Source: Candidatus Shapirobacteria bacterium (GTDB lineage Bacteria; Patescibacteriota; Microgenomatia; UBA12405). From it: a DNA stretch of 64,000 nt. The stretch is taken from contig JBAZYN010000004.1 in the NCBI GenBank assembly GCA_041659325.1, forward strand, positions 583 through 64,582. Reading direction: 5' to 3'. Positions 16,206 to 51,600 of this stretch are shown in pieces. Made by a program: the position numbers and the translations under genes. Positions within the stretch are counted from its first letter, which is position 1. Every line of letters begins with the position of its first letter. The notes under the pieces were generated by a model. That model was not told the origin of the DNA, made no database searches, and was given only the letters and a program-made list of their open reading frames with translations.

Positions 16206-16282
16206 TTCGATATCTGCAAACAAGGAACATCAGTCGGGGCAAATAAAAATACCCAAATAATACGAAAAATTTATTTCCATTT

Positions 16283-16293
16283 TGTGGTAAAAT
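16283..16293 (+). promoter_or_regulatory. Extended -10 promoter element (TGtGGTAAAAT) for the 16328 gene
   Basis: TG-n-TAAAAT lies about 35 nt upstream of the start codon in a 417-bp AT-rich intergenic region. Confidence 0.4.
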
Positions 16294-16327
16294 AGAGAAG
16301 GTATAGAGTTTTACGGTTACATTCTTT

Positions 16328-17002
16328 TTGGCGCAGACGAATACAATGGATAACTTATTTGTATATTTTCTTCAAGCTCCTGCTACCGGAAATGATCCTG
16401 TCGTTTGTAAAGGGGCGGAGCAAATACTTAATAGTCTAGGCGATAGTATTAATTTCCAAAAAATTTCTCACCAATCTGAGGAACAAAGAGACCTAATTGA
16501 ACTCCACCAACCTCTGCGAATTTTCACTCTTGGATGTAGCCCCCAATTCGAGGTCACTCCGATTACTTATCTCAATCAAAAATACAATCAGGATTTTCTG
16601 GTTATTTGGTTTGACATCCGGGGATATCCTTTTTTCACCGATCCCGCTTTTTCTCAGCTAGATTTAAATCAGATAATTTTGGCCGGTGTAAACGACCTGG
16701 GTCAGTCCATCACCACCACTTCCTGCCACGAATTAAAAAATGGTCAGTTAATTTATAAAATCCTGAAAAAAGCTAAAAAAAATATTTATATTCATCTCAA
16801 CCTCAACGTTCTCGACCCTCAGGAATTAGGATCAGCTTCCCGCCCCGACGAAAACGGTATTCCCTTCGAAGCTTTAATCAGCCAAATTTTTCAGGTAAAA
16901 AAAGACTTCAACATTGTCGGGATAAGTATCGTCGAAGCCCCAACGATGACTCAATATCAACTGGACAAAGTCAACAAATTAGTACTAAAAACCTTCGAAT
17001 AG
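16328..17002 (+). CDS. Hypothetical protein, possibly a degenerate arginase/deacetylase-fold protein
   Basis: HLNLNVLDP resembles the SxDxDxxDP motif of the arginase family, but the metal-ligand Asp/His residues are not conserved. This is weak. Confidence 0.25.
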   Translation: MAQTNTMDNLFVYFLQAPATGNDPVVCKGAEQILNSLGDSINFQKISHQSEEQRDLIELHQPLRIFTLGCSPQFEVTPITYLNQKYNQDFLVIWFDIRGYPFFTDPAFSQLDLNQIILAGVNDLGQSITTTSCHELKNGQLIYKILKKAKKNIYIHLNLNVLDPQELGSASRPDENGIPFEALISQIFQVKKDFNIVGISIVEAPTMTQYQLDKVNKLVLKTFE

Positions 17003-17008
17003 TAAAAA

Positions 17009-17035
17009 AGTAAGCTATTATTAAACAAGCTTACT
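17009..17035 (+). promoter_or_regulatory. Perfect 8-bp inverted repeat hairpin (AGTAAGCT-N11-AGCTTACT) between two co-directional genes
   Basis: It has no U-tract and abuts the ATG at 17037, so it is an operator or processing/attenuation hairpin rather than a classical terminator. Confidence 0.35.
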
Positions 17036-17036
17036 T

Positions 17037-18359
17037 ATGAAAAAAGATATTCTGTCGCTTCTATCTGTTTTCAGCCTCGCAGTTTTAACCCTTTCTTTTT
17101 CCCCGCCGATTTCTTTTGCCCAAAGTTATACTTCCCGTCAAAGAATTGGTGTCGGTGTCCACTCCCACACTCCCGTAGACTATCTCAATTGGTATGATTT
17201 TCAGGCTTATAATCTTGGTTGGTATTTTACCTGGAAGGGGACCAGTGATTTACCCAACCCTGGCAATATCGATGGAGTTGAATTTATGCCCACGTATTAC
17301 AATGGCAAATGCCCTCAGGCTTCTCTCGATCTGGTAAAAAATAACCCCACTGCCTATCCTTTTGGGACCACTTTTTTGATCGGCAACGAGCTTGGTATGA
17401 CCGAAATTCCCGATATGGCTGTTTATGCCCAGGATTACCGCAATTGTTATCTTGCTCTCAAAAATTTAAATCGAAATTACAAAGTTGTTTTGGGCGCCCT
17501 AACTTCGTCAAGTCGGATATATATGCTCGAAACCATCCGTTCCGAGTATAAAAAAAATTACGGCACTGATTTGCCAACGGACGGTTATCGGGTCAATGTC
17601 TATTTTGAAACTTTGGCCAGTGCCGTCACCAAAATGCGTAATTTTATGAAAAGTGTCGGCGATCAGGATAAGGACTTAATCATCACCGAATCATGCCATC
17701 CCGACAAAACCGAATCCGAAAATGTTGCCTACCTAAAGGAAGCTCTAAACTACACCACCACTACCAAAGATACCTCTATCGGCAAACCGTCCGATAATTA
17801 CATGCTGATCCAGCGCTTTGCCTGGTTTCTTATGAATAGTGCCGTCAACGGTTATTCCAGTTGTTCGCTTTACGATATCAATTTACATGCGGCTGCCTAT
17901 CCTCCCCTTAAAACCAAAAAGACTCAAGTTGGTTTGGCTTTCTCCGATTGGATGGCCAAAAACATCCCCCCGACTGCCTCCAGTCCCACTCCCACCAAAA
18001 AACCCACCCTGATTCCCACCCTTCGCCCCACTTCAACTACAATCCCAACTATCCGTCCGACTTCCACCTCAACTTCCCGCCCCACCTCAACTTCAATCCC
18101 GACCATCCGTCCCACTCCCACCCTCAAACCGACCTCCCTCCCTTCTGCCTCTCCCACCGTCTCCGTCTGTTCCAAAAAAGCCACCGGTGATGCCAACTGT
18201 GATGGTTTGGTAAACATCTTTGATTTTGGAATTTGGAAAGTAGACTTTATTGACTATCGCAGCGGTACCAAAAAAAATATTTGGGACTCAGATTTTGATG
18301 TCGATTCAAAAGTTTCTATCTATGATTTTTCTATCTGGAAACTGGGCTACGGTAAATAA
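17037..18359 (+). CDS. Secreted clan GH-A-like (TIM-barrel) glycoside hydrolase with Pro/Thr linker and C-terminal dockerin-like module
   Basis: Signal peptide. IGNELG (acid/base-like) and IITES (nucleophile-like). A PT-rich linker. Dockerin repeats DANCDGLVNIFDF and DFDVDSKVSIYDF. Confidence 0.5.
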   Translation: MKKDILSLLSVFSLAVLTLSFSPPISFAQSYTSRQRIGVGVHSHTPVDYLNWYDFQAYNLGWYFTWKGTSDLPNPGNIDGVEFMPTYYNGKCPQASLDLVKNNPTAYPFGTTFLIGNELGMTEIPDMAVYAQDYRNCYLALKNLNRNYKVVLGALTSSSRIYMLETIRSEYKKNYGTDLPTDGYRVNVYFETLASAVTKMRNFMKSVGDQDKDLIITESCHPDKTESENVAYLKEALNYTTTTKDTSIGKPSDNYMLIQRFAWFLMNSAVNGYSSCSLYDINLHAAAYPPLKTKKTQVGLAFSDWMAKNIPPTASSPTPTKKPTLIPTLRPTSTTIPTIRPTSTSTSRPTSTSIPTIRPTPTLKPTSLPSASPTVSVCSKKATGDANCDGLVNIFDFGIWKVDFIDYRSGTKKNIWDSDFDVDSKVSIYDFSIWKLGYGK

Positions 18360-34254: not shown

Positions 34255-37032
34255 GTGGTGAAAAAGATCATCTTTTTTCTATTCCTGTGGCTTGGGTCAA
34301 CTTCTGATTTACAGGCCGCCGACCTCCAAAGCACCTATCTTCGTCTGGACAGAAACAAAACCGGTCTTAGCCCCGGAAAAGTCTTGGTAGTCACCAAAAC
34401 AACTTCATCGGCTACCGAAGATGGTGTCAGAATTACCGTCGGCACCGGTTGGACTATTAACACTAATGCTTCTGCTTTTTCAGTTTCTACCATAAATTTA
34501 CCCGAAGGAGTTTCTGCCTGGCCGGGGATAGACACTGCTGTCGCGGTCAACGGCCAAGCAATCACTTTTCCCGGTGTCGACCTGGCTCCGGGCGAATTTT
34601 ATGGCTTCTATATTACCGGTGGAATAGGCGTAAACGGCCAGGTTAGCAGCAGCAACTATGTTTGGGAGGTTGCCACTTTAAGCGGTGGATTAGCCGACGG
34701 TACCATAGAGGTTGGGGTGCCGGTTGTGGCCGCTGATTCAATCACGGTAACTGGAACTGTTCCCGCCAATCCCTCAGATTATCCGGTCAGTATTTCCTCG
34801 GACCTTACCGGAAACGCGTCACAAAACCAGACACTCAACTATCAGATAGATTATGGTTCTTTATCTGCCGCCATTACCAAACCTCTGACCATAAAAGCCG
34901 AGTGGAGTCGTGGTACTCTGGAGAACTTTCCTATCCCGACTCTGGATATACTTGATTATGTAATCGGTAGCGGTACCAGTGCTTACAATGGGGTAGAGCC
35001 GGTAATAGATCTGATTGACCGGACAATTACCTGGACAATTCCCGATTTCCCGACAAACACTTTAGGTCAGACTGTTAGTTTCAGTCTGCAGACAAACGAT
35101 CAATATACCGGTTCCAGCCTAGTTAATTTCGATGTCAGTGTCACCGTCACTGCCGGTAACATCACGGTTGCTACCGACACAATAAACCAATATTATCAAT
35201 ACAATCCGCCATATTTATCACCAACTCCGACCCCGACCTCAATCCCCACTCCCACTTCTGTTTCCACTCCGGCTCCGACCTCTACCTCCACTCCCGCAAT
35301 TACTCTCGCTCCCGGTATTCCCACGGCCACGTCCGCCCCTGCAGCAACCTCGACTCCGGTTCAAGGCCCGACTCCCACCCCAAAACCTTTTAGGGAAAAG
35401 CTCAAAATAGAGAAAGTAGAAATAATAAATTTGTCCTCAAACGAGGCTGGAATCAGGGTAGCTACCAATATCCCTCTTGATAAATTAATTTTGACATATG
35501 GTTTAACTCCGAAAAAAATTACTCAAAAAATTATATTTTTAAAGCCGGATAATTTCGAAATATTTTTACTAACCAACCTTAATCCCCAAAACCTATATTA
35601 TTTTCGTTTGGAAGCACAAGCCGATACCGATAGATTGTTTTCGGATATTTTTACTTTCAAAACTCCCGCCGTTTCTGATCTTCCCGAAGTTGTAAAATCC
35701 ACTCTACTAGCGAATAGTGACGGTAAGGTTTTATATGACGCCGCCAGAATAGACAAAGAAATCAATGATTATTTGGTAATTATTCCCAAAGCGGTTGAAT
35801 ATTCTATTCAATTCCAGGTCGATAAACACGATTTGGTAAAGCAGGCTACCCTGATATTAAAAAGCCGCCAGGTTTTGGGGATTAGTAGCGCCTATGGAGC
35901 GGAACCCGCCAGTAGTTTAACTGATTTAATCGAAATTAGACCCGGTTGGTTCATGGGAAGACTTTTAAGTCCTTCAGAAGTAAGCTTCTATGAAATGTCC
36001 GTCAGACTGTCGGGTATCAACGGCACCATAATAGAAAACAAGTTGGCCGACATGGAAATAATCGAGCCGATGCGAATTTTGGAGTTGGAATCCCTTGCTC
36101 CCATTGAATCCGCCAAAGTCGAAATTAGTTTGTATAATTCAAAAGAAAAAAGGTTTTTAATAATCCCCCCAAACACTCTGTTGTCAGAAAATCCCGTATT
36201 TTCAGAAACAGACGGTGAAGTGGCTTTGGTTCTGCCAAGGGGTAAATATCGGGCCAAAGTCACTGCTTTGGGTTATTCAGAAAAACAAACCGAGTTTGAA
36301 ATTAGCGCTGGTGGCGATTTAAAGCTACCGTCAATTTATCTAGAAAAAGACAAATTTAATTTATTGGTAGTTGGCAGATATTACTCTGGTACTTTCACAG
36401 ATGTTTGGCAATATTGTAAAAACAACCTGAAATATCTATTTTCCTCCGGAAGATTTTTCAATCTAGTCGCCCTGATAAACTTGATTCTGCTGGTTATTAA
36501 TACCACTATATTTTATAGAAATAGCCTAAAAACTAACATTTTCGGAGGCAAAAACCGCGACGACTATATAGATGGAAAAATAAATGTCTCTGGAGCCGAT
36601 ATCATTCTGATTGATGCTGAAGCCAGTAGGATCCTGGCCAAAACCAAAAGCAATTGGTTGGGGCGCTTCCGTTTCAAGCTCAAACCGGCCAAAAGATATA
36701 AGTTGTCTGCCTCCAAAAGCGGATACGAGACTTCCCCGTTCTTTGAATATGTTGGCGATGAGGGAATTTTAGCAGGCGATATTAAAATCAATCTGAAAAG
36801 ATCAGAAGACAAACAAAAACTCAAATATATCCTCAACGAGTGGTTCTACTGGGAAATTTCAGATTTATCTACGGGGGTTTTAAACATTTCAGTCTTGTTG
36901 GTCGAAATACTTTTTATTAATAAATTCGGTTGGTCGGCAACCGCTATATGGATATTAATTGGTATATTAAATTTAATCTTGTGGTTAGTTTATACTTACA
37001 GAAATGGCAATAAAGTGGTGGCAAAACCTTAA
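34255..37032 (+). CDS. Large surface protein (925 aa): signal peptide, N-domain shared with the 38138 protein, PT linker, CarboxypepD_reg-like domain, C-terminal TM helices
   Basis: The N-terminus LRLDRNKTGLSPGKVLVVTKTTSSATEDGVRITVG is homologous to the 38138 protein. PT linker at about 35220-35400. GKINVSGADIILID...GYETS fold. Two C-terminal hydrophobic helices. Confidence 0.6.
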   Translation: MVKKIIFFLFLWLGSTSDLQAADLQSTYLRLDRNKTGLSPGKVLVVTKTTSSATEDGVRITVGTGWTINTNASAFSVSTINLPEGVSAWPGIDTAVAVNGQAITFPGVDLAPGEFYGFYITGGIGVNGQVSSSNYVWEVATLSGGLADGTIEVGVPVVAADSITVTGTVPANPSDYPVSISSDLTGNASQNQTLNYQIDYGSLSAAITKPLTIKAEWSRGTLENFPIPTLDILDYVIGSGTSAYNGVEPVIDLIDRTITWTIPDFPTNTLGQTVSFSLQTNDQYTGSSLVNFDVSVTVTAGNITVATDTINQYYQYNPPYLSPTPTPTSIPTPTSVSTPAPTSTSTPAITLAPGIPTATSAPAATSTPVQGPTPTPKPFREKLKIEKVEIINLSSNEAGIRVATNIPLDKLILTYGLTPKKITQKIIFLKPDNFEIFLLTNLNPQNLYYFRLEAQADTDRLFSDIFTFKTPAVSDLPEVVKSTLLANSDGKVLYDAARIDKEINDYLVIIPKAVEYSIQFQVDKHDLVKQATLILKSRQVLGISSAYGAEPASSLTDLIEIRPGWFMGRLLSPSEVSFYEMSVRLSGINGTIIENKLADMEIIEPMRILELESLAPIESAKVEISLYNSKEKRFLIIPPNTLLSENPVFSETDGEVALVLPRGKYRAKVTALGYSEKQTEFEISAGGDLKLPSIYLEKDKFNLLVVGRYYSGTFTDVWQYCKNNLKYLFSSGRFFNLVALINLILLVINTTIFYRNSLKTNIFGGKNRDDYIDGKINVSGADIILIDAEASRILAKTKSNWLGRFRFKLKPAKRYKLSASKSGYETSPFFEYVGDEGILAGDIKINLKRSEDKQKLKYILNEWFYWEISDLSTGVLNISVLLVEILFINKFGWSATAIWILIGILNLILWLVYTYRNGNKVVAKP

Positions 37033-38071
37033 ATTAAAGTGGCTAATATTTTCCTTTCTTATTCTGCCCGCCAGTACCAATTACAAACTGGAGGGTTTTA
37101 GTCTTGGAAACGCCGGGGGAGAAGTAATAGGTTCATCAAGTTATGAAATGGTCGGAAGTGTGGGTGAACTTTCAAGTAACAGCTTGTCGGGGGAAAGTTA
37201 TGATTTGGGGGTGGGGCTGGCCTGGGTTCGGCAATCAAACGTCCCTCCTGCCCCGGCAATCACCAATCCCGATAATTATTACAACAAGCTTCATCTGGTA
37301 ATAAACCGGGGTGATAACCCTGCCGATACAAAATATGCAATCGCTATCAGTAGCGATGACTTTACCACTACCCAATATGTTAAAAACGATCACACAATCG
37401 GAGCCACTTTGGTTTTAACGGATTATCAGACATATACGGAATGGGGTGCCGCAACCGGTATCGATATTATTGGATTAACCCCCTCAACCACCTATTCAGT
37501 AAAAGTAAAAGCTATGCAGGGCAAGTTTACTGAAACTGATTTTGGGCCGTTGGCATCTGTGGCAACCGTAGACCTCGAGCTTACTTTCGATATTGACGTC
37601 TCGGCATCCGACACTGAAACGGCCTCACCCTACATCATTTCTTTGGGGGATTTAACCCCGGGAAGTGTTAAAAGTAGTACCGAAAAAATTTGGGTTGATA
37701 TAGGGACAAATGCTACAAATGGAGCAAGTGTTTTTGTTTATGGTCAAAATGGTGGGCTGTACAGTTTGTCAGCCGGGTCAACTATTGCCGCCATTAGCGG
37801 AAATTTGTCGGAACTTCCCAAAGGCTTTGGCTCCCAAGGGGTAGGGGCCACTCAAAATAGCGGCGGACCGATAAATATTTCCTCTCCTTACAATGTAAAC
37901 AATGATGTGGTTGGAATTACCGATACAACTATACGACCGATTTTTTTATCTGAAAACCCGGTTAATGCGGGAAGGGCTAGATTTTTGGTTAAGGCCAAAG
38001 TGGATATAACTACCCCGGCCGCCGATGACTACAGCGAAACTTTAACTGTAATCGCCGCGGCAAATTACTAG
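37004..38071 (+). CDS. Secreted surface-associated protein (paralogous C-terminal motif shared with the 38138 protein)
   Basis: N-terminal hydrophobic signal. The C-terminus ...AADDYSETLTVIAAANY matches ...AASDYSDTLTVVGAGTF. Confidence 0.5.
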   Translation: MAIKWWQNLKLKWLIFSFLILPASTNYKLEGFSLGNAGGEVIGSSSYEMVGSVGELSSNSLSGESYDLGVGLAWVRQSNVPPAPAITNPDNYYNKLHLVINRGDNPADTKYAIAISSDDFTTTQYVKNDHTIGATLVLTDYQTYTEWGAATGIDIIGLTPSTTYSVKVKAMQGKFTETDFGPLASVATVDLELTFDIDVSASDTETASPYIISLGDLTPGSVKSSTEKIWVDIGTNATNGASVFVYGQNGGLYSLSAGSTIAAISGNLSELPKGFGSQGVGATQNSGGPINISSPYNVNNDVVGITDTTIRPIFLSENPVNAGRARFLVKAKVDITTPAADDYSETLTVIAAANY

Positions 38072-38137
38072 CAACTATCGCTTGACAAGATAGTCTAAAT
38101 AGCTCATATTTATACTTAGAAACGAGTTTATCAAACA

Positions 38138-39157
38138 ATGAAAAAAATAAAAGGCATTTTTTCTAGATGGAGTATCAGCTTAATTACCGCGATAACAATC
38201 TTCCTTGCTTTCGCCGCCACCGAGGTTAACGCAGCAAGTTTTTCCCACGCCTCCCTTCGCTACGACCGGATTAAAGCCGAGACCCTTTCCAGCCTTCAGG
38301 TGGTAATTGTTCCCGCGACAGTTGCAACCGAAGACAGAGTGGTCATAACCTTTGGCTCTGCCACCGTCGGTACCACCAACGCCACTTCGGTCACCAATAT
38401 ACCTACTGGCTCTGTAGCTCTTCCCGGCACTCTTTCTGCCGTAAGTGCCGGTACCACTATCGTTATTACTGGCGTTACCGATCTCACAGTCGGTACCACC
38501 TATGCTTTTAACCTGACAATCGGTGTCTCCACCCCGGCCGCAGGAACTGCAAACGATATTATTTCTACCCGAAGTGATGCTACTACCGTAATAGATCAAA
38601 CCACTGTCGCTTCAAGATATATCACCAACGATCAGATAGTTATCAACGCCGTCGTTCCCCCCTCTTTTAATTTTGTCTTAAGTGCCGGCAACACCGATAC
38701 TTTTACTGCTAATTTAAGTGGCACCACAGAAGTATCTACTTATGGTAATACGGTAACGGTTACAACAAATGCTCCAAGGGGATGGATCGCCTGGGTAAAA
38801 AGCGCCAATCAGGGTTTAGTTTCCCTGTCCACCGGTATCACTATTGCCACTACTGGAACCGTAAATGGTAGCCCCGACACGCTGACTGCCGGTGCTAATG
38901 GCTATGTCCTGGACGCCGATTTAACTAGCGATAATGGTACGGGTACAGGCACCGTAACTATCGCTCCCGAATACAACGGCGCTTCCGCCAAGGCCGGAGG
39001 AACTTTATCCGCTATTTTTCAGCCCTTTGCTTCATGTAACGGAACCACCGCCGGTGACGTTATCACCCTGATAGAAAGAGCCACGGTAACCACTATTTTA
39101 GCCGCTGCTTCGGATTATTCTGATACTCTAACGGTTGTTGGTGCGGGGACTTTTTAG
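38138..39157 (+). CDS. Secreted Thr/Gly/Ala-rich surface protein (N-domain shared with the 34255 protein, C-motif shared with the 37004 protein)
   Basis: Signal peptide ending ATEVNA. An SLRYDRIKAETLS...ATEDRVVITFG N-domain. A conserved C-terminal DYSDTLTV motif. Confidence 0.55.
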   Translation: MKKIKGIFSRWSISLITAITIFLAFAATEVNAASFSHASLRYDRIKAETLSSLQVVIVPATVATEDRVVITFGSATVGTTNATSVTNIPTGSVALPGTLSAVSAGTTIVITGVTDLTVGTTYAFNLTIGVSTPAAGTANDIISTRSDATTVIDQTTVASRYITNDQIVINAVVPPSFNFVLSAGNTDTFTANLSGTTEVSTYGNTVTVTTNAPRGWIAWVKSANQGLVSLSTGITIATTGTVNGSPDTLTAGANGYVLDADLTSDNGTGTGTVTIAPEYNGASAKAGGTLSAIFQPFASCNGTTAGDVITLIERATVTTILAAASDYSDTLTVVGAGTF

Positions 39158-39185
39158 ATAAATCTCCGGGGATTAATATATAATC

Positions 39186-40256
39186 TTGGTATCAATGATC
39201 AGCCACCGTTTCTTGGCAAAATTTTTTTTTGGTCTCATATTAGCCCCCTTGTTATTTTCCGGTCCAAAAGTCATTTGGGCCCAAACTACTGCCACCAACA
39301 GCGAACTGAATTTAATCACCTCGCCCCTGCCGATAAATTTGGTAACCGAGCCCGGGGCTACGGTTTCTGCTGATCTGAAAATTCAAAATGGTGGAATTGT
39401 CACCGAACAGCTAAAAGTTGAAGTCCTAAAATTCAACGCCTACGGAGATGACGGATACCCAAGGCTGATAGATCGTCAACCCGGTGACTCATTTCTGGAT
39501 TGGGTATCATTTTCGGAAAATTCTTTTGAACTTGCTCCCAAACAGTGGAAAACCATCACGGCCACTTTTTCCATCCCCCCCGATGCTGCTTTTGGCTATT
39601 ACTATGCTATAACTTTTTCCCGAGCCGAAAACATCAAGGCCGATGGTGGGGGACAAACTTCCATTACCGGCGCTACTGCTACCCTCATTCTTTTAGAGGT
39701 TCGGGTCCCAAATGCCAAAAGAGAGGTCGAAGTCATGGAGTTGTCCACCGATAAGAAAATTTATGAATTTTTACCGGCCAACTTTCAGATAAAACTGAAA
39801 AATAAAGGTAACGTTCATCTTTCTCCCCGCGGAAATATTTTTATCGACCGAGGCAACCAGCGTGATGTTGCCATTTTGGAAATAAATCCCGAAAAAGGTA
39901 GTCTTTTACCCGATTCAAACCGCGTTTTCAGCACTAAATGGGCTGATGGTTTTCCTCTTTACCGGGAAAAAGTTAAGGACGGAAAAGTAGTCTTAAACAA
40001 AAAAAATGAAAGCGAGAAAGTACTCGAGTGGGATTTTAGCCAAACTCACAAATTACGTTGGGGAAAATTTTCAGCCAAAATGCTTATTGTTTACGACAAC
40101 GGAGAAAGGGACATCCCCATCGAAGGTATTGTCAGTTTTTGGGTAATTCCCTGGCGGCTTGTCAGCGCCGCCGGAGCCATAATTCTTTTAACCATCGTCG
40201 GTTTATGGTCAACTTTGGGAAAAATACTCATGAAGTTAATCAACAGAAAAAAATGA
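39186..40256 (+). CDS. C-terminally TM-anchored cell-surface protein, paralog A (DUF916/DUF3324-like architecture)
   Basis: Signal peptide, the motif KNKGNVHLSPRGNIFID, a C-terminal TM (AGAIILLTIVGLW) and a basic tail. There is an ATGA overlap with the next gene. Confidence 0.55.
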   Translation: MVSMISHRFLAKFFFGLILAPLLFSGPKVIWAQTTATNSELNLITSPLPINLVTEPGATVSADLKIQNGGIVTEQLKVEVLKFNAYGDDGYPRLIDRQPGDSFLDWVSFSENSFELAPKQWKTITATFSIPPDAAFGYYYAITFSRAENIKADGGGQTSITGATATLILLEVRVPNAKREVEVMELSTDKKIYEFLPANFQIKLKNKGNVHLSPRGNIFIDRGNQRDVAILEINPEKGSLLPDSNRVFSTKWADGFPLYREKVKDGKVVLNKKNESEKVLEWDFSQTHKLRWGKFSAKMLIVYDNGERDIPIEGIVSFWVIPWRLVSAAGAIILLTIVGLWSTLGKILMKLINRKK

Positions 40257-41194
40257 TCAGCGGCCAAAAATGTTTTGGTTTAATATTTTTTTTAGGCCTA
40301 ATTGTTTCGCTCCTTCCGATCCGAGTTTCAGGTCAGCAGAAAAAAATCCAAACCGGTATAAGTATTGCTCCGCCGTTTACGGAATTAGTTTTTGACAAGC
40401 TTGACAAAGAAAAAAACTTTATCTTAACTATCACCAACCATGGCCACAAATCCGAAGTGTTCAGGCTGTCGGTAGTCGACTTAGGCGGGCTTGAAGAATC
40501 AGCCGGAGTTCCGTTTTTGGGGACAAAAAACTCAGAATTAGAAAAAAAATATTCCTTAAGTTCGTGGATAATTTTGGGTAAAGACGCTCTGGTAGTCGAT
40601 CCCCAAAAAAAAGTTGACATAAAAATCACCATCCAAAACAAAGAATCCTTGTCCCCGGGAGGTCATTACGGCGCCGTAATTGTTAAACTGGATAATTCCG
40701 ACAAATCCGGTACCGATGTCGTGGAGGTGAATCAAAATTTTGCCTCTCTTATCTTTGTCAAAAAAATCGGTGGCGAGATATATGACTTAAAGCTTAACCA
40801 AACAACAATCCAAAATTCTTATCTAAAGATACCGGACACAATAGAGCTCAGATTTCAAAATTCCGGCAATATCCATGTCGTCCCCCGCGGTACGCTGGAA
40901 TTAAAAGATCCCTCCGGCCGTTTGATCGCAAAAGGGGTTATAAACAAGGCCTCTTCCATTATCCTGCCCGAGTCCTTCCGAACTTATCAAAACAGAATCA
41001 ATCAGTTAAAACCGGCCTGGTTACCGGGAAAATACCACCTTACGGTCAATTATCGATTTGATGGGTCAGACCAAATATCATCTCTGACAAAAGATTACCT
41101 ATACCTAGGTTGGCTGCCGTATGCCGTCTTCGGCGTCACTATCGTCACTTGGTTTTGGTTTTTAAGGTCCAAAAAATCTAAAAAACAAGAATAA
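40253..41194 (+). CDS. C-terminally TM-anchored cell-surface protein, paralog B
   Basis: Signal peptide MISGQKCFGLIFFLGLIVSLLP, the motif QNSGNIHVVPRGTLELKD, a C-terminal TM and the tail RSKKSKKQE. The ORF-track start at 40058 is inside the upstream gene. Confidence 0.55.
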   Translation: MISGQKCFGLIFFLGLIVSLLPIRVSGQQKKIQTGISIAPPFTELVFDKLDKEKNFILTITNHGHKSEVFRLSVVDLGGLEESAGVPFLGTKNSELEKKYSLSSWIILGKDALVVDPQKKVDIKITIQNKESLSPGGHYGAVIVKLDNSDKSGTDVVEVNQNFASLIFVKKIGGEIYDLKLNQTTIQNSYLKIPDTIELRFQNSGNIHVVPRGTLELKDPSGRLIAKGVINKASSIILPESFRTYQNRINQLKPAWLPGKYHLTVNYRFDGSDQISSLTKDYLYLGWLPYAVFGVTIVTWFWFLRSKKSKKQE

Positions 41195-41312
41195 AAAAAT
41201 CGCTAACTATCGCCATATTTATAATATTTGAATTTGATATCTAAAGATATCTTTTAAATAGACATCGTTTTCACTATAGTACACAGTAAGGGCTGTTATA
41301 TCGGGCCTAGTC

Positions 41313-42626
41313 TTGACGTATATGGGAAAGTTTATTATAAAAATCTGGTCAATCTTCTGTTTAATAATTTTTTGGGTATATTTCTGTCTCTCACCTGTTT
41401 CCGCGGCAATTTACGAAAGGGTGAATTTTCAGGGTAAAGTAGTCAATAAATCCGTCGGCGAAACAGACGGCACCAATGTCCCCGACGGCGATTACGATTT
41501 TGTTTTCACCATTTACCCGGCCCTTAGCACCGGCTCTTCTCTTTGGACCGAGACCTGGGATAGTGGTACAGCTCAGGTAGCAGTTACTAGCGGAGTATTT
41601 AACGTTAATTTAGGCACCCAACTGACCTTTCCCGCCAATCTTTTTGAAAGTGATAGTTTATTTTTGGCCATAAATTTTAACGCCGATGGCGACATGACTC
41701 CCAGGATTCGGCTCACTTCTGTTCCCTATGCTTTTAGTGCCGGCAAAGTTGCCGGCTTAACCATAGATAGCATTGGAGTTACCCTTGACCAAAGTTTAGC
41801 TACTACCAATTCACCCACTTTTTCGGGTCTAAATATTGGCACCTCTCTGTCGGTTGCGGCCAATGTAAACGTCGGCGGCACCTTAATTTTTTCCGCTACC
41901 GGCGTAAATATCGACGCCGTCACCGCCCAAGGGTTAATTTTTCAGGGGAGGAATTCTTCCTCTTTTAACACCACTAGCGGTGACATTACTCTCAATCCTG
42001 CCGGTTCAGTCATAATCGGTACCGGCACCAGTACTTTTACCTTCAACCCTCTTTCCGGTCCGCTCTATTCAGGCTCGGCCCGACCTTCAAAAACAATCAG
42101 AATTTCACCGGAATACCCCGGAGCTTCAATGACTGCCGATGGCTCCACCGATATTGGTGGTACCATGACTTCCGACAACACCCTAAACGCCGGTGGCATC
42201 GGCTGGAAAAATTATTATCAGTGGTCATCCGGCAATGCTGCCTTACAGGACTATTCGGTTTTGGCCCGAGTTGCCCTTCCCTCTGATTTTGATACCTGGG
42301 AAACCGGCTCTTGTCCGGGAGCTGCCTGTGCTTTTGAAATAGAATTCCAAACCGGGGTCGGCACCACCGACGATAATTATATTTCTGTCGCCGTCAACAA
42401 TAACTCCGACACTCCCGGCACCGCCGTCTGTTCAATTGGCTCAACCGCCGCTACCGCCTGGACCTTAACTGGTTGCCCTGAAGCCACCTTAAATGATGGG
42501 TCTTCTTCAGAGTGGGATGCGGCCGGAGAAGCGGCCGTTGTTCGTATCAAATTGGCGGCAAAAAGTACCGAAAATGCCTTATCTCGGGTAGGGGACATCA
42601 TTTTAAGGTACAAGGCAAAATTCTAA
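41313..42626 (+). CDS. Secreted hypothetical surface protein
   Basis: N-terminal signal and a beta-rich Thr/Gly/Ser composition. A TAATG stop/start overlap with the giant gene. Confidence 0.5.
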   Translation: MTYMGKFIIKIWSIFCLIIFWVYFCLSPVSAAIYERVNFQGKVVNKSVGETDGTNVPDGDYDFVFTIYPALSTGSSLWTETWDSGTAQVAVTSGVFNVNLGTQLTFPANLFESDSLFLAINFNADGDMTPRIRLTSVPYAFSAGKVAGLTIDSIGVTLDQSLATTNSPTFSGLNIGTSLSVAANVNVGGTLIFSATGVNIDAVTAQGLIFQGRNSSSFNTTSGDITLNPAGSVIIGTGTSTFTFNPLSGPLYSGSARPSKTIRISPEYPGASMTADGSTDIGGTMTSDNTLNAGGIGWKNYYQWSSGNAALQDYSVLARVALPSDFDTWETGSCPGAACAFEIEFQTGVGTTDDNYISVAVNNNSDTPGTAVCSIGSTAATAWTLTGCPEATLNDGSSSEWDAAGEAAVVRIKLAAKSTENALSRVGDIILRYKAKF

Positions 42627-45600
42627 TGAAAATTTTTTCGCCCCTCCCTAAGTTAAAAAAAACCCTCTCGCTATTTCTCTTGACCGGCCTGGTATTTTTT
42701 TCCTTTTTATCTACCCCCACCCTTTTGGCCCAGGATGCGGCTCCTGCTATATCCGTAGACCCCGCTGTATCAATCTCTCCACCTTCCCCAGAGTCCTATT
42801 CTGATTCACCCGAAGCCAACAACTCAGCCAGACTTCGTCCTAGCTTTAAACTGGAAACTTACGACACCAATCCGGTTTTCAGTAAATCAAAACCTGAGTT
42901 TAAACTAGTCTCCGGCACCAAATTTAAACCAAGAATCAAGGTGTACAATAATTCAAAACAGGAAATCGATATTGAGCTCGTTGAAAAAGTCGACAAGGGC
43001 GATGTTGTTTATAGCTTCAATCAAGCCACAGAAATTCCCCCCGGTAAATATACAATCACATTTCAAGATGATCTCGGCGGCGAAATATCGAAAGATTTTT
43101 ACTGGGGAGTTTTGGCCATCAATTTCAACAAATCCGTTTATAACCCGCTGGAAAACGGTTACATTTCTCTTGCCGTTTTAGACGAAACCGGCGACATGGT
43201 CTGTGATGCCAAGTTAGCCCTGATTGTCGAAGAACCAGATGGTTCAGTCGAAGAGTTAACCACCGATGATGGCCGCATCAAGGTCAACCCCGAATGTCAG
43301 GTTCATGGCTTTACGGAAAAGCCGGATTATGAAACCGAATATGCTTTTAGTGAAAATCCGGGCACATACAAATTTCACCTTGTCGCCGAAACCAAAAATG
43401 GTTCTTATAGTATTACCGATCAGGTTCAGGTAGCCGAAAACTTACCTATCGAAGTCGACCGGGTTATGGCTACCCGCATTTATCCCCCCCACCCTTATAC
43501 TGCCACTATTAATCTAAAGGCAAATGAAGATTTTATCGGAATAGTCACGGAAACCGTCCCCTCAAGTTTCATTATCACCAAAGCCGCCAATACCGAAATT
43601 TTACCCTACAAAACCATAGTTGAAGACAAAAACTCAAAGACAAAAAAAATTACCTGGAATTTAGACCTAAAACCAGGCGAAGATGTCACTATCGGTTATC
43701 GATACGATATCCCCGATATCTCGCCCGAATTTTATCTGGTTGGGCCGATAAAGTTTACCGATTATAGCGGTACTGTTGATTTTTTTACCGAAACCCGTCA
43801 ATGGCAATTGGCGGCCGATGCCGTAGCTCCTGTAAAAATCCGGCAAGAAATTAATATTATTAACGGTTTAGTTACTGCCGCTGGGGTTGATGCCGCCATA
43901 GTAAATCTGGATACCGCCAAATATAACAGTGCCACTTATTATTTTGAAGTAATTGCCAAGGTCAGTGCCGGCACCTTAACCGTCAACCTCAGTACCGGAA
44001 ACACCAATACCGTTGGTATCGGTATCAGTGATACTAGCTTTGTCAGAGTTCGGTCGGCTTTTACCCCCGAAAGCGGTTCTTTTGACTACCGACTTAATTT
44101 AGTAAACGGGACCTCGCCACAGGTGAAAGCCGCCAGAATCATTATTTTACAAAGCGCCACTACTATTACTGCCACTCAAACCCAGATTGAAATCGGCAAT
44201 TTGGAAATCGGTTTATCCATGGCGACGACGGCTCCCCTTACCAGCCCAAAATATTGGAAATATGATTCAGCTTTGTGGGATGGGACAAAAACATTTGATA
44301 TCAGCGTTTCATATAAAGCCGGCGTGGGGGTCACGGCCGGTTCCCAAACTTTTACAGTAGCAGGTATCAATACTTTTACCCCACCTGGTGGCATAACCTC
44401 AGTCAAGGTCGAATGTTGGGGCGGCGGCGGCGCCGGTGGAAGTTCCAACACCACCACCGACGGTTGCGGTGGCGGTGGCGGTGGTGCCTATTCCAATAAA
44501 TTAAATGTGGGTGTCACAGCTGGAATTGGCTATACCGCTTTTGTCGGAGTCGGCGGTACCTATAGATCTCAAGCCAAAGGAGGCGATGGCGCCGCCAGCT
44601 ATTTTCGAAATAGCGTCGGCGTGACTGTTGTCTCGGCCGCCGGAGGAATCGGCGGCACTTCTCAAGCCAGTAGCAATCCGGGAGCCGGTGGAGCTGGCGG
44701 TAACTCCACCGTTGGTGTTGGAGATACCAAATGGAGCGGAGGAACAGGTGGTAGAGGCTATAATGCTTCGGCAGGGCAGGGAGGTCCGGGTGGTAGCTCA
44801 GCCGGAATTGGAACCACGGGCCGGTCTGGTCCGGATCCCTGGTCAACCAGAGTTGCCAGTGCCGGCCCTACTGGTAGTGGTATCGGCGGTAGTGGTGGCC
44901 CGGCTGGTAACAGCGGTGCAGCCCCGGCCAGTGGAAATGGCGGCGGCGGCGGCGGCTCCGGCGATGTGGCAACCAGTGTCGGTGGAAACGGCGCCGGTGG
45001 GAAAGTAGTAGTTACTTGGGCCGCAATAGATAACGCAGTTTCAATTTATCTTCAGGAAGACAACGGTTCTTTTGCCGGCTGGACAAATGTCGTCACTGTT
45101 TTAAGCGGTGGTACCGCCACCGTCCCGACTTCGGTGGGCATTACAAACTTTACCCCTACCACCGGTAGAAATTATCGACTCGTTGCCAATACTGGTCTCA
45201 GTCCTTTTGATATTTATAATGCCAAAATTATTGTTAATCAAACCAGTGCTACTACTATTGACAAGCTAGTTCCCCAATATTTGTTGCTAAATACAAAATC
45301 AACCACCACCGGCAGTGCTTTAGGTTATCAAAGTTTATGGACCACCGACGAATGGGGCCGGACTACCAATACCTATCTGCATGCCTTTGACTCCATCGGT
45401 GGCGGCACCACCGCCACTGTTAAGCTCGTTGATATTGATGCCGGAAATGCTGAATTAACCAATTCCGCCATTGGCGGGACAAATCAAGTAATTAGTAATG
45501 GCATAACAATGCCCACTTCCGGTCATCAAATAGATACCTGGCTGACCGCCGCCGGAACCGAAGTCGACGCTTCGAGAATTTTGGTTCAAGTTGACGTAAC

Positions 45601-48600
45601 GGCAGTTCAAAATCCGACCGTTGTTCTCAACAGTCTCGACAATGGCGCCACCACTACTGATACCACCCCGACTTTGGATTTTACCGGCACTAGTGCCTAC
45701 GGAGATAGTGTCAGATATAACATTCAGATAGCCACCAACGACCTATTTTCTTCTAGCATAATCACTCAAACCTCGGTTCTGTCTCAAGGCACCGAGACGG
45801 ACGCCAGTTCGTACGATACCGCCAGTATTTCCCCCGGTGCTAATAAATTAGTCCTTCTAGCCGTGGCCTCCCGGGTGGCTGGCGGCGGAAACAATACCCC
45901 TACCGCCAGTGGTGTTGGCATGAGCTGGGATTTAGTCACCACAGTTCAGGAACCCGGCAGCTGGAATAGGATTAGTCTTCTTCGAGCCATGAGTCCGTCG
46001 CCTTCTTCCGGGGCTATCACCATTTCTTTTGGTGGTCAAACTCAAACAGCTGTAAACTGGCAAATTTCCGAGTTTTCAAATGTTGATACTTCGGGGACAA
46101 ACGGTGCTAGCGCCATCGGTCAGTCACAAACCAACACCGGTGCTTCCGTTACTAGTCTCACCGTTACCTTGGGTGCTTTTCAAAGTACCAATAACGCCAC
46201 CTATGGGGCTATGATCTCTGAGGTCGCCTCTCCCATCAACCAGGGTACTGGATTTACTGAAGTTTATGATTTAAGTGTTACCGATAGCGCTCTGGAAACA
46301 GAGTGGAAAGATAGCAACGATACTTCGGTGGATTGGTCTTTTACTCAGGGCAGGGTCGGCGGAATTGCCGTCGAAATAAAAGCGGCTCCATCTGCCCTCG
46401 ATAAAGTTTCCGGTACCGATGTCGGTTTTTCCGGATCTCCGGATAATACAGATCCTTTTACATCCGCCCAAGCCGTAAATTATACCGTTGAGGAGGGAGA
46501 TAGCTTGGCGGTAGGCACTTATTACTGGCGAGTCAGAGGTATAGATCCAGATGGGAGCAATGCTTACGGCTCGTGGAGTGATACCCGTAATTTTGTGGTA
46601 AGCATGGCTGCCAATGTGACTATTTCGGGAAATATCTATACCACCGAAACCGCCACTGCCTACAACTGTTCATCCACCAACCTAACAGTTCGGGCCATAG
46701 TCGAGGGAGCCGGAGTCGGTACTACCGGTATTTGTACCTCCGGTGGTGGGGCATTTCTTATCCAAAATATCACCGTTGGTGATACCGGTCATGTAATTAC
46801 CTTATATTTAGACGGAGAATCAGAGAAAGCCACCTCCATTACCAAAGTTGCCAGCACCTCTATAGGATTTACCCTTCCCCTTTATCAAAACCGGGTATAT
46901 CTTAGTCACCAAAATGACGGGCCGATTACCAATGCAGATATCGATAAATATGATAGCGCCAACGATGCCGATATCCAATATACCTCAAACGGTGTCGGTC
47001 TCACCGTTACCCCGGGCTCCAAAATTGTTATCGCCCTTGGAAAAACCTATACTCCCGGCGGAAGTATTGACACCCCCTCAATCGGCATCGGTGGAACTTT
47101 CAACCCGGAGTCGAACACTGTTAATCTAACTGGAAGCGGCAGCAGCATCACCTGTACCGATGCCCCGGGGACAGTCATGCCTCTATGTAATAGTGGTACT
47201 TTTAACCAGTCAACCTCAACCATCAATTACAACGGGACTTCCGCTTCTGCCATCGCCGCTCTTACCTTCAATAATCTGGGTGTGGGTATTTCCTCCGAGG
47301 CGGGAGTCGGCACTACCTATACCTTTACCGGTAACGTCACAGTCGGCGGTATCTTCTCTATCGGAAATATCTTGTCATCAAATATCGATGTTGTAAATGC
47401 TTCCTCCCACACTCTTACTCTAACTCAGGCAGATACTCCGCTAAATGCTACTCCCAAGGGTGCTCTTGCTCCGGGAAGCTCGACTGTCGTTTACACTGCC
47501 TCCGCAGATACCAGCGTTGCGACTGTTGACTATTACAACCTTTCTCTGGCCCCTGCCTCAGGCACACCCACTTATACTCTTTTAAACGTTTGGGAATATA
47601 GAAGACCAATAGCAATTACCAATGCCTCGGGCGGGGACCTAACCGACTTTCAGGTTTCCTTTACTTTGGACACCACCGACAGTACTAGATTTCAGCCGGA
47701 TTGTGATGATATAAGAATCACCGACTCAAGTGGTATTACCATTCTTCCTCATTGGATCGAAGAAAACAATCCCGGTTGTGGCAATGCCTCTACCAAAATT
47801 TGGACCAAAGTTCCCTCTATTCCCACTGCCGGCACAACCATCTATGTTTATTACGGCAATCCCATTGCTTCATCATCGCAAAACGGTACGAGTGTTTTTG
47901 AGTTTTTCGACGATTTTAGTGGCGATAGCCTAGACACACAAAAATGGACAAAAGTTAATGGCTCAACTCCGGTTCTTGCCTCCGGCACCTTGGCCATTAC
48001 CGCCACCGCCGACCCGGGTAAATTAATTGCCTCTGCCGGCCCCAATGGCGACAACTACATTTTAAAAGCCAGATTTATGGTTACCGGCGGCTCTGCCGAC
48101 GATGAAAGGTTGGGTCTAAGCGTAAAAACCAATACCTCAAGCGGAGCTGGCTACAATCTGGTTTTTAGGGGCTTTACCAACCTGTCAACGGTTCAGTTTT
48201 TACATGACGCAGTTGAGTGGGGCAGCGCAGACACTGTCAATTGGGCCAAAGACACATATTATACCGAAGAAATTTATCATGACGGAACAAATGTCAAAGG
48301 TCGTTTTAACGACGGTTCCTGGTACAGTTGGCCCAGAAGCGGAATATCCGGCTATTTGGCGATAAATTTTGCTAGTTTTAACGGTACAACTAGTATCTGG
48401 GATTATGCTGTTATTAGGAAAGCGGCTTCAACTGAACCCTCCTCCTCCGTCCAGGCAGAACAGGGTGTAACCAACACTGATATATTAACCGTCCACAATG
48501 ATTTTTCTACTTCAGGCGCCGGTACCGTAACTGTCAATGTAGAGACAAACAACAGTGCCACCCTGGATATTAATGGGGATTTTACTCTGGCTTCCGGCGA

Positions 48601-51600
48601 TACCTTTCTGGCCCCTCCCACTACGTCTATAGCCGGCGGCTATACCAACAATGGTACCTTTACCGCCAATTCTGGAAAAGTTACTTTTGACGGAACCGGA
48701 AGCAATACCCTATCTGGTTATATGAATGTCGGATCTGGCTCAACCTCTCCTTTCTATAAAGTGGTCTTTAGCGGCATCGGTGGCAGTTGGACCATTGCCG
48801 ACCCCATAAAAATCGGAGCTACCAATGCTACCGATACCCTATTAATAAACGCCGGAGTTGTTACCTTGGGCAATGGAAACGGTGATGATATGGAGGTCGA
48901 TGGAAAAATGAATATCGGTTCTACTGTCGGTCTGGCAATTTTTCAAACCATGGATGGTCTTGCCCAGGGCAGTGTCATCAATCTTGATATCAACAGCAAT
49001 ACCGCTCCGTTTAATTGTACTAACTGTTTGGTTCAAGTAGGCACAGCCGACAACACCGCCCCCCAGGGGACTTTTGTCATCAATGAAAACACCAACCTTC
49101 GATTAAATTCTTTCTCCAGCATTCAGTCGGGTCTGGATATTTATGCCTCGGGGAAAATAACTATTCGGGGTCTTCAGTCAGACACCGGCGCTGATAGCGG
49201 CACCGACACTACTTCCGCCGCCACCAGAGAAAGCAAAGTGTGTGTTGTCAAACCCGGCTGGGAAAACGACAGCCACAATAATAAAAACCTAAGAATCACC
49301 TCCGGCCTTGCCTTTGGGAAAATATACACTATCTCGGACACTATTACCAACGATTCCGATTGTGCCTCCGATACTGATGAGTCGCTGACTATCAACGATA
49401 CTTCCGTTCCCTCCGGGGCTAGCACTGCCGTCGTAAGCTCAATCACCACCGTCTTATCGCAAAGATGGGTTTGTTCCAATGCCACCACATATATTTCCGC
49501 GGATAATAAAGAGATAGGCAGATATCTACACGATCTGTCGGGTGTCACCGGTTATTACAAGATTGTCGACTCCACCAATAATGATGCTACCAACTGTTCG
49601 GGTAATGATAGGTTCAGGATTATGGCTGATCCTGCTGCTGAATTTGCCAGTCTGCAAACCAGTGATACTTTTAAAATTGTCGATGGTATTAGGTCCGATG
49701 ACACCTTTGAAATAATTGATTATGCCTCTATTACGGCCCAAAATGGTGTCGCCTGTAACTCATCGTTCAACGGCTATATCCTGGGAAGAAACCGTTCAGA
49801 AGTAGATATCCAATATTCAGATATTTGCAATATGGGAGCTTCCGATGAATATAAAACCGGAATCATGCTTGGCTACTCTTCGGCGGGCACCGACGGCTCT
49901 CTGCAAAACGAAGGGTTTGCAATTTCCAAGTCAAGGATAAGAAATGGTCACAATGGAATTGTTTTTTATTATGCGGACAATAATTCCGGAGCCAAAGGTA
50001 TCTCCGACAATTATATTTCAGGACATGCATCTTTCGGAATTGACTTTTACTACGGTGCCGACAACAATAGTGTTACTTCAAACACTGTTTGTGGCAATTT
50101 TCAAAACATTTATTTTAGGAATAATTCAAATAACAACACCGTATCTTCTAATATTATTTGTGAAGCCACCACCTTTGCCGGAATTGTTTTATATGATTCG
50201 CTAAGCGGTAATATCGTCTCTTCAAATACTATTTACAACAACGCCCAACATGGTATCTATACTGGCACTAACGCCATAGACAACACCTTTTCATCAAACA
50301 CCGTCTTCGGCAACCAATTAAGTGGAATTACTCTTGACAGTGCCCACATGACCAAAGTATCGGGCAACACGGTAAACAACTCTCAATATCATGGGATATA
50401 TATAATCGGAGGGTCAAAGGGCAATATCATTTCGTCAAACAACGTTTTTGGTCAAGACGCTGGTATTTATCTTTATAATTCTGCCAACAACAATCTTTTG
50501 TACACCAATAATTCATACAACAATGCCTACGGTTTACAATCGGGTTCTAACTCGACAAACAATGTATTTTTCGGAAATGATTATTACTCTAATACTAGCT
50601 ATGGTAGCTATAATAATGACGGTTTTAGTAATAATGTTTTCTATAATGATTCGTTTTATGGCAATATATTCGGCTGGATTGACAATGGTGCCTCAAATTT
50701 AAATAACATCCTTATAAACAATAGTTTCGGAGTCGGAACAGAAAATGGTTTCTACGATATCTATCAAATAGGATCTGCTCCCCATTCTACGCATTTATAT
50801 AGCTCGACTGTTAATTCCACCGTTGAGGCCGACGGAATTATCTACCCCGGCTCATCAATTATCTCCCGCTCTCACGATGGAGTAGCCGGTGCTACCAAAA
50901 TCTGGGGAGAATATTCCACTTCATCAAATAACTCCGAAACGCCACAGGATGAAGGGTTAGAAAGATATAATTATGCCGATTCCTCCTGGCCCGACTCAAT
51001 TACCGACCCGGGGTTTTCCGGTATCGGAACCTCAGACACCGATCTAAATCTTGGCTTCGCCGGAGGTACCTTAGGCGGGGGGACTTCAGCCGCCTTTGTC
51101 TACCGGGTTTACTGCACTGTCACCAACTGTGTCACCTCCCCCAACTCGTGGGGGGTTGAAAGAGATGGGATAGGTTTGGGTACCTCCGCCTCTAGCGGCG
51201 TTGGCTATACCGACCCTGGCACCAATATCTCGTTTAAAATCGATGATTCCGGAACAGATTTTGCCCTGGGTGATACCTACACCTTTGTTGCCTTCAGGGG
51301 TAGTACTGACACCAATACTCAAAAAACTATAACAATGGCCCAGGATGGGGATTTAATAAATGTTGGTGCCGGTACTACTCTCCGGGCAATCGGGGTCGGC
51401 GGTAGCCACACCTTGATCACCCGTGGTGGATCGGGCGGCTACCACATTAATGTCGCCGGAACCCTTGATGCTAGCTACTATACTTTAAGTTATTTAGGAG
51501 GAACCGACGGAAATTTAGGGCTTGATTTACAAAGTGGTTCTCTGATTACTAATTTAGCCAACGGTGTCTTTGATAATTTCCAAGATGTCGGATCATCGGA

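Follow-up and report, generated by a model that had tools for sequence, protein, structure and literature searches.

A probable Pam-type pilus operon in a Candidatus Shapirobacteria genome and the modules shared by its secreted proteins

We analyzed a stretch of 64,000 nucleotides from a Candidatus Shapirobacteria genome (contig JBAZYN010000004.1 of assembly GCA_041659325.1; hereafter the window), in which a run of genes on the forward strand encodes secreted proteins built from shared modules. The region from position 34255 to 42626 is probably, with a likelihood which we put at roughly 70%, a Pam-type pilus operon of this member of the Candidate Phyla Radiation (CPR; Microgenomatia). It appears to encode a recently described, thin non-type-IV pilus of CPR bacteria, ultra-small organisms which live attached to hosts. 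On this reading, the locus is a new example of the Pam-type pilus and represents a widespread variant in which the tip protein bears an FN3 domain. The genes, all on the same strand, occupy positions 34255–37032, 37004–38071, 38138–39157, 39186–40256, about 40253–41194 and 41313–42626, and code for proteins of 925, 355, 339, 356, 313 and 437 residues, respectively; they are followed by a giant gene coding for 3140 residues. Proteins are designated here by the start coordinate of their gene.

The first-pass annotation of the window had quoted four peptides and proposed from them an N-terminal domain common to the 34255 and 38138 proteins and a C-terminal tail common to the 37004 and 38138 proteins. 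All four peptides were found at the genes named. The N-terminal module was confirmed by pairwise BLASTP (46 of 126 residues identical, 37%, E 8e-10), in a match which spans the signal peptide and residues ~15–130. Similarly, the C-terminal likeness proved real (55 of 170 residues identical, 32%, E 5e-9), and because this match extends over ~170 residues, from residue ~177 to the final residue of both proteins, the common element is a whole domain, and the tail is no more than its terminal part. When hidden Markov models (HMMs) of the families were run against all 441 six-frame open reading frames (ORFs) of the window, the N-domain profile matched only the 38138 (1.5e-49) and 34255 (6e-24) proteins, while the C-domain profiles matched only the 38138 and 37004 proteins, with cross-family matches of 5e-14 and 2e-12. 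A regular expression for the tail is likewise found at a C-terminus only in these last two proteins. Chance similarity was considered as a source of the shared modules and was ruled out because of these E-values and of the conservation in orthologs, from which the motif is not missing: the tail is kept in 54 pilin homologs and in 46 homologs of the 37004 protein.

The 38138 protein (38138–39157, forward strand) is a two-domain pilin of PamA/PamB-like architecture and the probable shaft subunit. Its AlphaFold2 (AF2) monomer model, built with 54 sequences, has a predicted local distance difference test (pLDDT) value of 92.6 and consists of a signal helix, which corresponds to the N-terminal hydrophobic signal segment, a β-sandwich at residues 37–162 with eight long and three short strands, and a second β domain at residues 177–337. 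From the model strands and the HMM match, the N-terminal β-sandwich domain was assigned to residues 33–162 (38234–38623), and from BLASTP, HMM and model together the C-terminal domain, a putative strand acceptor of about 12 strands, was assigned to positions 38684–39154. Between both domains lies the linker TNDQIVINAVVPPSFNFVLS (residues 163–182, 38624–38683), a putative donor strand, whose residues 163–176 (TNDQIVINAVVPPS) are without strand assignment and yet have a pLDDT of ~95. In fact, this linker is the only confidently modeled stretch of the protein which lacks a strand partner, as well as its second most conserved element, and it is therefore the putative donated strand.

The tail DYSDTLTVVGAGTF of the 38138 protein (39113–39154) contains the last strand of the model, residues 331–337 (TLTVVGA), and the tail DYSETLTVIAAANY of the 37004 protein (38027–38068) contains residues 347–353. 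Both strands have a pLDDT of ~96, and in these monomer models the folded C-domain ends with the tail as its last β-strand. To place both proteins among their relatives, 82 sources were compared, namely the window, one further locus (L001) and 80 loci drawn from the species genomes of GTDB (the best 80 of 247 relatives). All 152 C-domain proteins of these sources end with Phe (144) or Tyr (8). In 138 of them, the distance from the tail motif to the stop is exactly six residues, and in the remaining 14 close variants of the motif are found at this position. The consensus is DY(S/T)(D/E)TLTV..(F/Y). Among the 54 pilin homologs, D326, Y327 and D329 are invariant and F339 nearly so; among the 46 homologs of the 37004 protein, which end with the consensus TPAAxDYTETLTVIASAxF, D342 and T348 are invariant. 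Over 134 pilins, mean conservation decreases from 0.84 in the tail through 0.75 in the linker and 0.64 in the remaining C-domain to 0.54 in the N-domain, and DYSDTLTV is the most conserved window of eight residues (0.90).

The same pattern was found at larger scale. When 1.84 billion cluster representatives were scanned in full with this profile of the pilin (HMMER), 1058 clusters (50% identity) were retrieved at E ≤ 0.001 and 298 at 1e-30, the match reaching the last residue in complete proteins. A Phe or Tyr end is present in 145 of 149 representatives of such 50%-identity clusters, the remaining four being fragments. The tail rule, DY-x-(D/E)-T-L-T-hydrophobic followed by exactly six residues ending with Phe or Tyr, can thus serve as a sequence signature for the subunits. 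It also catches large fusion proteins, which are possible cargo or adhesins: in fusions of 784–1641 residues (P0373, P0383, P0385, P0409 and P0497), the complete pilin module is always at the extreme C-terminus, and a subtilase-like domain, IPT/TIG-like repeats or FN3-like repeats were recognized by eye in front of it. This layout recalls "large WxL" proteins or tip adhesins.

The gene context is conserved as well. The order tip-like gene, pilin gene (one or two copies), type-1 helper gene (one or two copies) and type-2 helper gene is kept in most of the 82 sources, with a gene of the 37004 type as first gene of the operon and the helper genes adjoining the pilin genes. In line with the restriction of Pam-type pili to CPR bacteria, the 80 loci belong mostly to genomes labeled as CPR, and the lineages of the named homologs and of most loci are Shapirobacteria, Gottesmanbacteria, Saccharibacteria, Moranbacteria and Parcubacteria. 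One metagenome-assembled genome (MAG) of Candidatus Shapirobacteria contains hypothetical proteins which match the 38138 and 39186 proteins with 100% identity. A minority of the operon-carrying MAGs have labels outside the CPR (Bdellovibrionales, Gammaproteobacteria, Limnocylindria, Terrimonas and Burkholderiaceae; L002, L007, L009, L016, L034, L044, L060 and others), which are probably taxonomic mislabels or mis-binned contigs. The three families which were searched are large and essentially unannotated, with 347 matches for the 38138 protein among 8000 candidates scored in a first search, 795 for the 37004 protein and 1437 for the 39186 protein. When the six operon proteins were scanned with Pfam and NCBIfam, neither shared module was assigned to a family; the scans returned weak fn3, Big_5 and CarboxypepD_reg matches and one partial match to PamT.

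This last match concerns the 37004 protein (37004–38071, forward strand; AF2 pLDDT 84.3), a tip-like (PamT-like) subunit which consists of a signal peptide, an N-terminal repeat motif, an FN3 domain and the pilin C-domain. It matches the NCBIfam family NF058579 (CPR_pilus_PamT) over residues 22–71 with E 0.008 and 15.6 bits, for a cutoff of 240 bits, and CPR_pilus_PamT is the only curated NCBIfam family which touches the operon. On Saccharibacteria orthologs, the PamT model reaches values down to E 2.1e-8, and NCBIfam scans of the 54 pilin homologs and of 93 Saccharibacteria operon proteins gave PamT on tip-like proteins only, with no PamA or PamB match. The N-terminal motif PASTNYKLEG...SYDLGVGL (residues 22–72, 37067–37219), which was delimited by conservation and by the PamT match and is the sole part of the protein matching this model, comprises three S-x-N/S-Y-x-L/M-x-G repeats beginning at the predicted signal-peptide cleavage site. 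Residues 22–71 are conserved yet disordered in the monomer model (pLDDT < 50), and it is possible that the motif depends on a partner, as a donor strand or a cap would. The FN3 domain is genuine, with a template modeling (TM) score of 0.73 to Robo3 FN1 in Foldseek. The C-terminal domain was assigned to residues 191–355 (37574–38068) from the BLASTP and HMM cross-matches to the pilin given above; in the model it occupies residues 193–353 and the tail is again its final strand. The first 29 nt of the 37004 gene are shared with the end of the 34255 gene, and the nearest protein-database entry to the 37004 protein has at most 65% identity, although both neighbors were matched at 100% by entries of one and the same 70-kb contig. 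Because of this overlap, the gene may be uncalled or called differently in public annotation.

The PamT match led to the Pam pilus of Candidatus Mycosynbacter amalyticus, for which electron cryo-microscopy (cryo-EM) structures of the pilins PamA (QHN43273.1) and PamB (QHN43269.1) have been obtained (EMD-80296 and EMD-80297; Troman et al., 2026, bioRxiv 10.64898/2026.03.03.709456). This filament is formed as the linker of one subunit is inserted into the open C-domain of the following one, and the donated linker and its binding site in the C-domain are the most conserved regions (Troman et al., 2026). PamT, which contains a C-domain only, is the tip; PamC and PamD have PapD-like folds with a transmembrane helix at the C-terminus; and PamR is a membrane-anchored terminator which donates an N-terminal strand (Troman et al., 2026). 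The same study reported homologs in Saccharimonadia and Microgenomatia, a tail fiber-like protein co-localized with the pam genes and an ATP-synthase neighborhood for pam operons, and it treats these bacteria as devoid of an outer membrane (Troman et al., 2026).

The locus of the window resembles this system in most of its parts. It encodes a Sec-secreted two-domain pilin with an N-terminal β-sandwich, a linker and a C-terminal immunoglobulin (Ig)-like domain; conservation is highest in the linker and the C-domain; two helpers have two β domains and a C-terminal transmembrane helix; the 37004 protein is a tip-like subunit with an N-terminal motif which partially matches PamT; the 34255 protein is membrane anchored and would be able to donate a strand without accepting one; a tail-fiber-like gene is present in both loci; and both occur in CPR lineages including Microgenomatia. 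In contrast to the Pam operon, there is one pilin gene instead of those for PamA, PamB and PamE; an FN3 domain is inserted into the tip-like protein (355 residues versus 241 positions in the PamT model); and the candidate anchor is a multidomain protein of 925 residues with a full pilin N-domain, not an RbmA-like protein with two FnIII domains. Besides the partial, sub-threshold match to PamT, no other Pam model was detected in the operon proteins.

Several observations weigh against assigning the operon to the Pam type. The PamT HMM matches only the N-terminal ~50–65 residues of the tip-like proteins and stays far below its cutoff, and membership relies on this partial match together with architecture and context, the comparison with the Pam pilins having been made with their published description. 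Foldseek comparison of the 38138 and 37004 models with the PDB returned generic Ig/FN3 multidomain proteins with TM scores of 0.2–0.27, which say little about the C-domain, and chaperone-usher pilins were not among the top 50 matches. No ATP-synthase genes were found in this window, and a protein of the 34255 type is present in only three of the 82 sources and hence does not belong to the system in general. The proposals on strand exchange, on the order of the subunits and on the position of the tail in a groove have a structural basis which consists of monomer models. Finally, the helper sequences match WxLIP proteins rather than PapD, which leaves room for a non-polymeric surface complex. 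Concerning the scope of the structural comparison, a PDB sequence-profile search with the pilin alignment gave nothing significant, neither the PDB sequence searches nor the Foldseek searches returned a Pam entry, and none of the 80 loci is from M. amalyticus.

Considering the Pam filament as a model, we infer that the subunits polymerize, which strand is donated, in what order the subunits are arranged and which of them act as tip and anchor, as follows. The subunits would cross the membrane by Sec, after which the membrane-anchored helpers (39186 and 40253 proteins) would hold the open C-domain by strand donation until their strand is replaced by the linker of the next subunit. The 37004 protein would be the tip or an initiator-type subunit which starts the fiber, its acceptor domain being placed behind the FN3 domain and the PamT-like motif. 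The 38138 protein would form the shaft, giving its linker as a β-strand to its neighbor and using its C-terminal Ig-like domain as acceptor. The 34255 protein would donate a strand to the last pilin and accept none, by which the fiber would be terminated and tethered to the membrane.

This mechanism is reminiscent of the chaperone-usher (Pap/Fim) pili, in which an incomplete Ig-like acceptor is completed by a chaperone strand and then by the donor strand of a neighbor, as proposed here, and in which an operon likewise encodes tip, shaft, terminator and chaperones. In the fimbrial subunits of chaperone-usher pili, the C-terminal strand is conserved and its last residue is aromatic, a feature which is shared by the tail. 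Based on its likeness to this C-terminal F strand, the tail would line the acceptor groove, into which the chaperone strand and later the donor strand are received, and a helper might grip the terminal carboxylate or aromatic residue of the tail. The two systems also differ: there is no usher and, as is assumed for these bacteria, no outer membrane here, the helpers are membrane anchored and have no PapD Pfam match, the donor would be an inter-domain linker and not an N-terminal extension, and the subunits have an extra N-domain. PapD, usher and fimbrial Pfam domains were searched for in the operon proteins and in 54, 46, 44 and 62 family members, and none was found.

The first-pass annotation had read the tail itself as a possible sorting or assembly signal, such as a β-signal or a donor-strand-like element, marking the substrates of a common anchoring or polymerization mechanism. 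The last part stands inasmuch as the subunits belong to one conserved operon with membrane-anchored helpers and the nearest known system polymerizes by donor-strand exchange; what does not stand is a separable signal, as the tail is the last strand of a folded domain. Outer-membrane β-signals typically carry a terminal aromatic residue, as the tail does, and on this ground a C-terminal sorting or anchoring signal (an outer-membrane β-signal, a sortase/LPXTG-type signal or another CTERM) was weighed. It is very improbable: the stop codon follows six residues after the motif, leaving no hydrophobic helix, basic tail or LPXTG, neither the 37004 nor the 38138 protein has a hydrophobic segment beyond its N-terminal signal, and the motif sits inside a homologous domain of 170 residues. 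The predicted domains are moreover soluble β-sandwiches and not barrels, and an outer membrane is taken as lacking by the Pam authors, which speaks against a β-signal in particular. A further possibility is that the donated strand is the tail. The type V pili of Bacteroidia are made from lipoprotein precursors, from which a protease removes an N-terminal strand, and the groove of a subunit is filled by C-terminal strands of its neighbor; this precedent could be extended to the tail, which is the most conserved segment, is always a free C-terminus and alternates hydrophobic and polar residues (T-L-T-V-V). We nevertheless consider a donor role of the tail to be improbable, since it is integrated in both monomer models whereas the linker is the unpaired conserved element, the Pam filaments of known structure have the linker as donor, and the 34255 protein retains the linker without having the tail.

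The 34255 protein (34255–37032, forward strand) consists of a signal peptide, a pilin-type N-domain, a linker-like segment, unrelated β domains, a Pro/Thr-rich spacer, CarboxypepD_reg domains and C-terminal hydrophobic segments (residues 734–752, 868–886 and 894–912), while the C-domain profile search of the window ORFs showed that the pilin C-domain is missing. The N-terminal β-sandwich domain covers residues 22–156 (34318–34722), and the linker-like segment VVAADSITVTGTVPANPSDYPVSIS, residues 157–181 (34723–34797), was aligned with the pilin linker by MAFFT, using three anchors and 13 pilins, and by BLAST. The similarity, which the first-pass annotation had placed in the N-domain, was upheld and extends further than proposed, as it covers the entire N-domain and the linker (ADSITVTGTVPANPSDYPVSI against NDQIVINAVVPPSFN-FVLSA) before the sequences diverge; the linker motif is kept in the anchor (ADSITVTGTVPA versus NDQIVINAVVPP). 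Compared with pilins of other genomes, the 34255 protein reaches 43% identity over 155 residues (E 1.5e-28), the match ending at pilin residue ~183, while its neighbor, the 38138 pilin, is only the 80th-ranked match (E 3e-8). That the module is closer to pilins of other genomes than to its neighbor suggests a different pilin subclade (AWPGIGTA...FP type), from which the N-domain and linker would have been acquired or with which they would have diverged.

L017 (Shapirobacteria) and L044 are the only other sources in which orthologs of the 34255 protein with the same layout were found (34–36% identity). As this protein has a donor linker and a membrane anchor but no acceptor domain, it fits a terminator or anchor, analogous to the role proposed for PamR, and is a candidate for the base anchor or terminator of the pilus. 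It would provide a concrete candidate for fiber termination and tethering in a cell without an outer membrane, and such a donor-only, membrane-anchored paralog in Shapirobacteria-type genomes is a lead which goes beyond the literature considered here.

A further lead concerns the pair of helpers. The type-1 helper (39186–40256, forward strand) has a signal peptide, two Ig-like domains and a C-terminal transmembrane helix at residues 320–338, and is chaperone-like; the type-2 helper (40253–41194, forward strand) has the same architecture, with a signal peptide, two β domains and a C-terminal hydrophobic segment, and the two types are homologous to each other (hhalign probability 99.7%). For type 2, a family of 62 sequences including the 40253 protein was assembled, of which 36 match PF06030 (WxLIP_PGBD, DUF916) at E ≤ 0.01, the best at 5.2e-8. 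The family consensus scores 34.5 bits against this model (cutoff 27.3) over profile positions 25–120 of 121, while the 40253 protein on its own stays above E 0.01. PDB profile searches with both helper alignments gave nothing significant, the best sequence match of the type-2 family being EfmWxLIP1 (9i25_C, E 0.22).

For a direct comparison, nine WxLIP and fourteen WxL proteins were taken from Firmicute plasmids (loci L082–L091). The type-2 family aligns with the Firmicute WxLIP proteins with an hhalign probability of 98.8% (E 1e-16) and, after removal of signal peptide and transmembrane helix, still with 94.9% (E 4e-8) and 221 columns over both domains. Type 1 reaches 97% at full length and 58% for its core, and the other β domains of the operon, used as a control, remain below 1%. 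Judging by these profile comparisons, the operon helpers are homologs of the Firmicute WxLIP proteins (DUF916/DUF3324). The Pam preprint does not mention WxL and compares the Pam chaperones only with PapD and FimC; the WxLIP ancestry of the helpers is thus a second lead beyond the literature considered here. Both helper families also have an invariant GN(V/I)H..PRG at the start of the second domain (39807–39833 and 40865–40891 in the window), which is without conservation in Firmicute WxLIP. Speculatively, this site could grip the invariant free C-terminus of the subunits.

The WxL (Csc) clusters of Firmicutes encode two proteins, one small and one large, with a common C-terminal domain, together with a WxLIP protein made of DUF916 (PGBD), DUF3324 (HBD) and a transmembrane helix, and AF2 prediction inserts a WxLIP strand into the WxL domain (Hassan et al., 2023, PMC10599100). 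The layout of signal peptide, two Ig-like domains and transmembrane helix, as well as the sequence, relate WxLIP to the CPR helpers, and in the CPR operon there are likewise two secreted proteins with a common C-terminal domain. WxL proteins end with ...Y-x-T-T-L-T-W-x-L-x-D-x-P, and their near-C-terminal Y-x-T-T-L-T-W is similar to the CPR D-Y-T-D-T-L-T-V. The CPR operon differs from these clusters in that it has no LPXTG protein and no WxL motifs as such, in the helper motif described above, and in that WxL proteins are regarded as wall-bound and not polymeric.

The operon might accordingly encode a WxL-type surface complex and no filament, in which the C-domain would be a divergent WxL-like module held one-to-one at the cell surface by the membrane-anchored WxLIP-like proteins, and perhaps by the wall, and the shared tail would belong to this docking domain. 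The homology of the type-2 helper family, the shared operon logic and the best local hhalign match between the C-domain and WxL domains, which falls on Y-x-T-T-L-T-W-x-L and DYTDTLTV, all favor it. Yet this motif is the only part which aligns, the overall comparison of the C-domain with the WxL domain is not significant (hhalign probability 0.5%, E 0.12, with 14 WxL sequences, and likewise not significant with 6), and no Pfam WxL match was found in 100 family members. WxL proteins have a few further residues after the motif, whereas here the stop always comes six residues on, and the layout of N-domain, highly conserved linker and C-domain fits the cryo-EM Pam pilins. We therefore regard a complex without filament as unlikely, keeping in mind that it is not exclusive of a pilus, as the Pam chaperones may themselves be relatives of WxLIP.

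It is possible, if doubtful at this stage, that Pam-type CPR pili and the Firmicute WxL/WxLIP (Csc) clusters form one ancient family of monoderm surface-assembly systems. The helpers would then be orthologous strand-donating chaperones of the WxLIP type, and the pilin C-domain, with its terminal Y-x-x-T-L-T-hydrophobic strand, would be a divergent WxL domain. If this were true, WxL proteins would be strand-complemented and possibly polymerizing subunits rather than simple wall binders, and the 925-residue protein of the Shapirobacteria type would represent a new kind of donor-only membrane anchor. Through their homology with WxLIP, the helpers connect the pilus recently solved in CPR bacteria with the WxL clusters of enterococci, listeriae and lactobacilli, which have long been enigmatic, and this connection could inform both fields if the subunit domains are also related.

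Regarding the remaining features of the window, a scan for promoters and terminators gave site counts which are not above those of shuffled sequence. A promoter-like site (TTGACA, 17 nt, CATATT) is located at 38082–38110, within the gap of 66 nt which immediately precedes the pilin gene. Further away, a protein of 939 residues (58979–61798) contains three CARDB and three CarboxypepD_reg domains, and its DFTDLFTV, which fits the tail regular expression 23 residues from the end, looks coincidental.

The last conserved gene of the operon (41313–42626, forward strand) encodes a tail-fiber-like secreted protein of 437 residues. Its N-domain (INFQGK...LW.E...V.V..G.F.V.LG) was found directly downstream of the helpers in 39 of the 68 loci with enough sequence, while the size of the protein outside this domain is variable, from 437 to 2622 residues in total length (the L001 copy is at 13276–17130); it may be a cargo of the pilus or an adhesin. 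Directly downstream, the giant secreted protein of 3140 residues (42512–51934) has a Gly-rich segment and long Asn/Ser-rich repeats resembling a parallel β-helix, and its true start is probably the methionine of MKIFSPL..., near position 42623.

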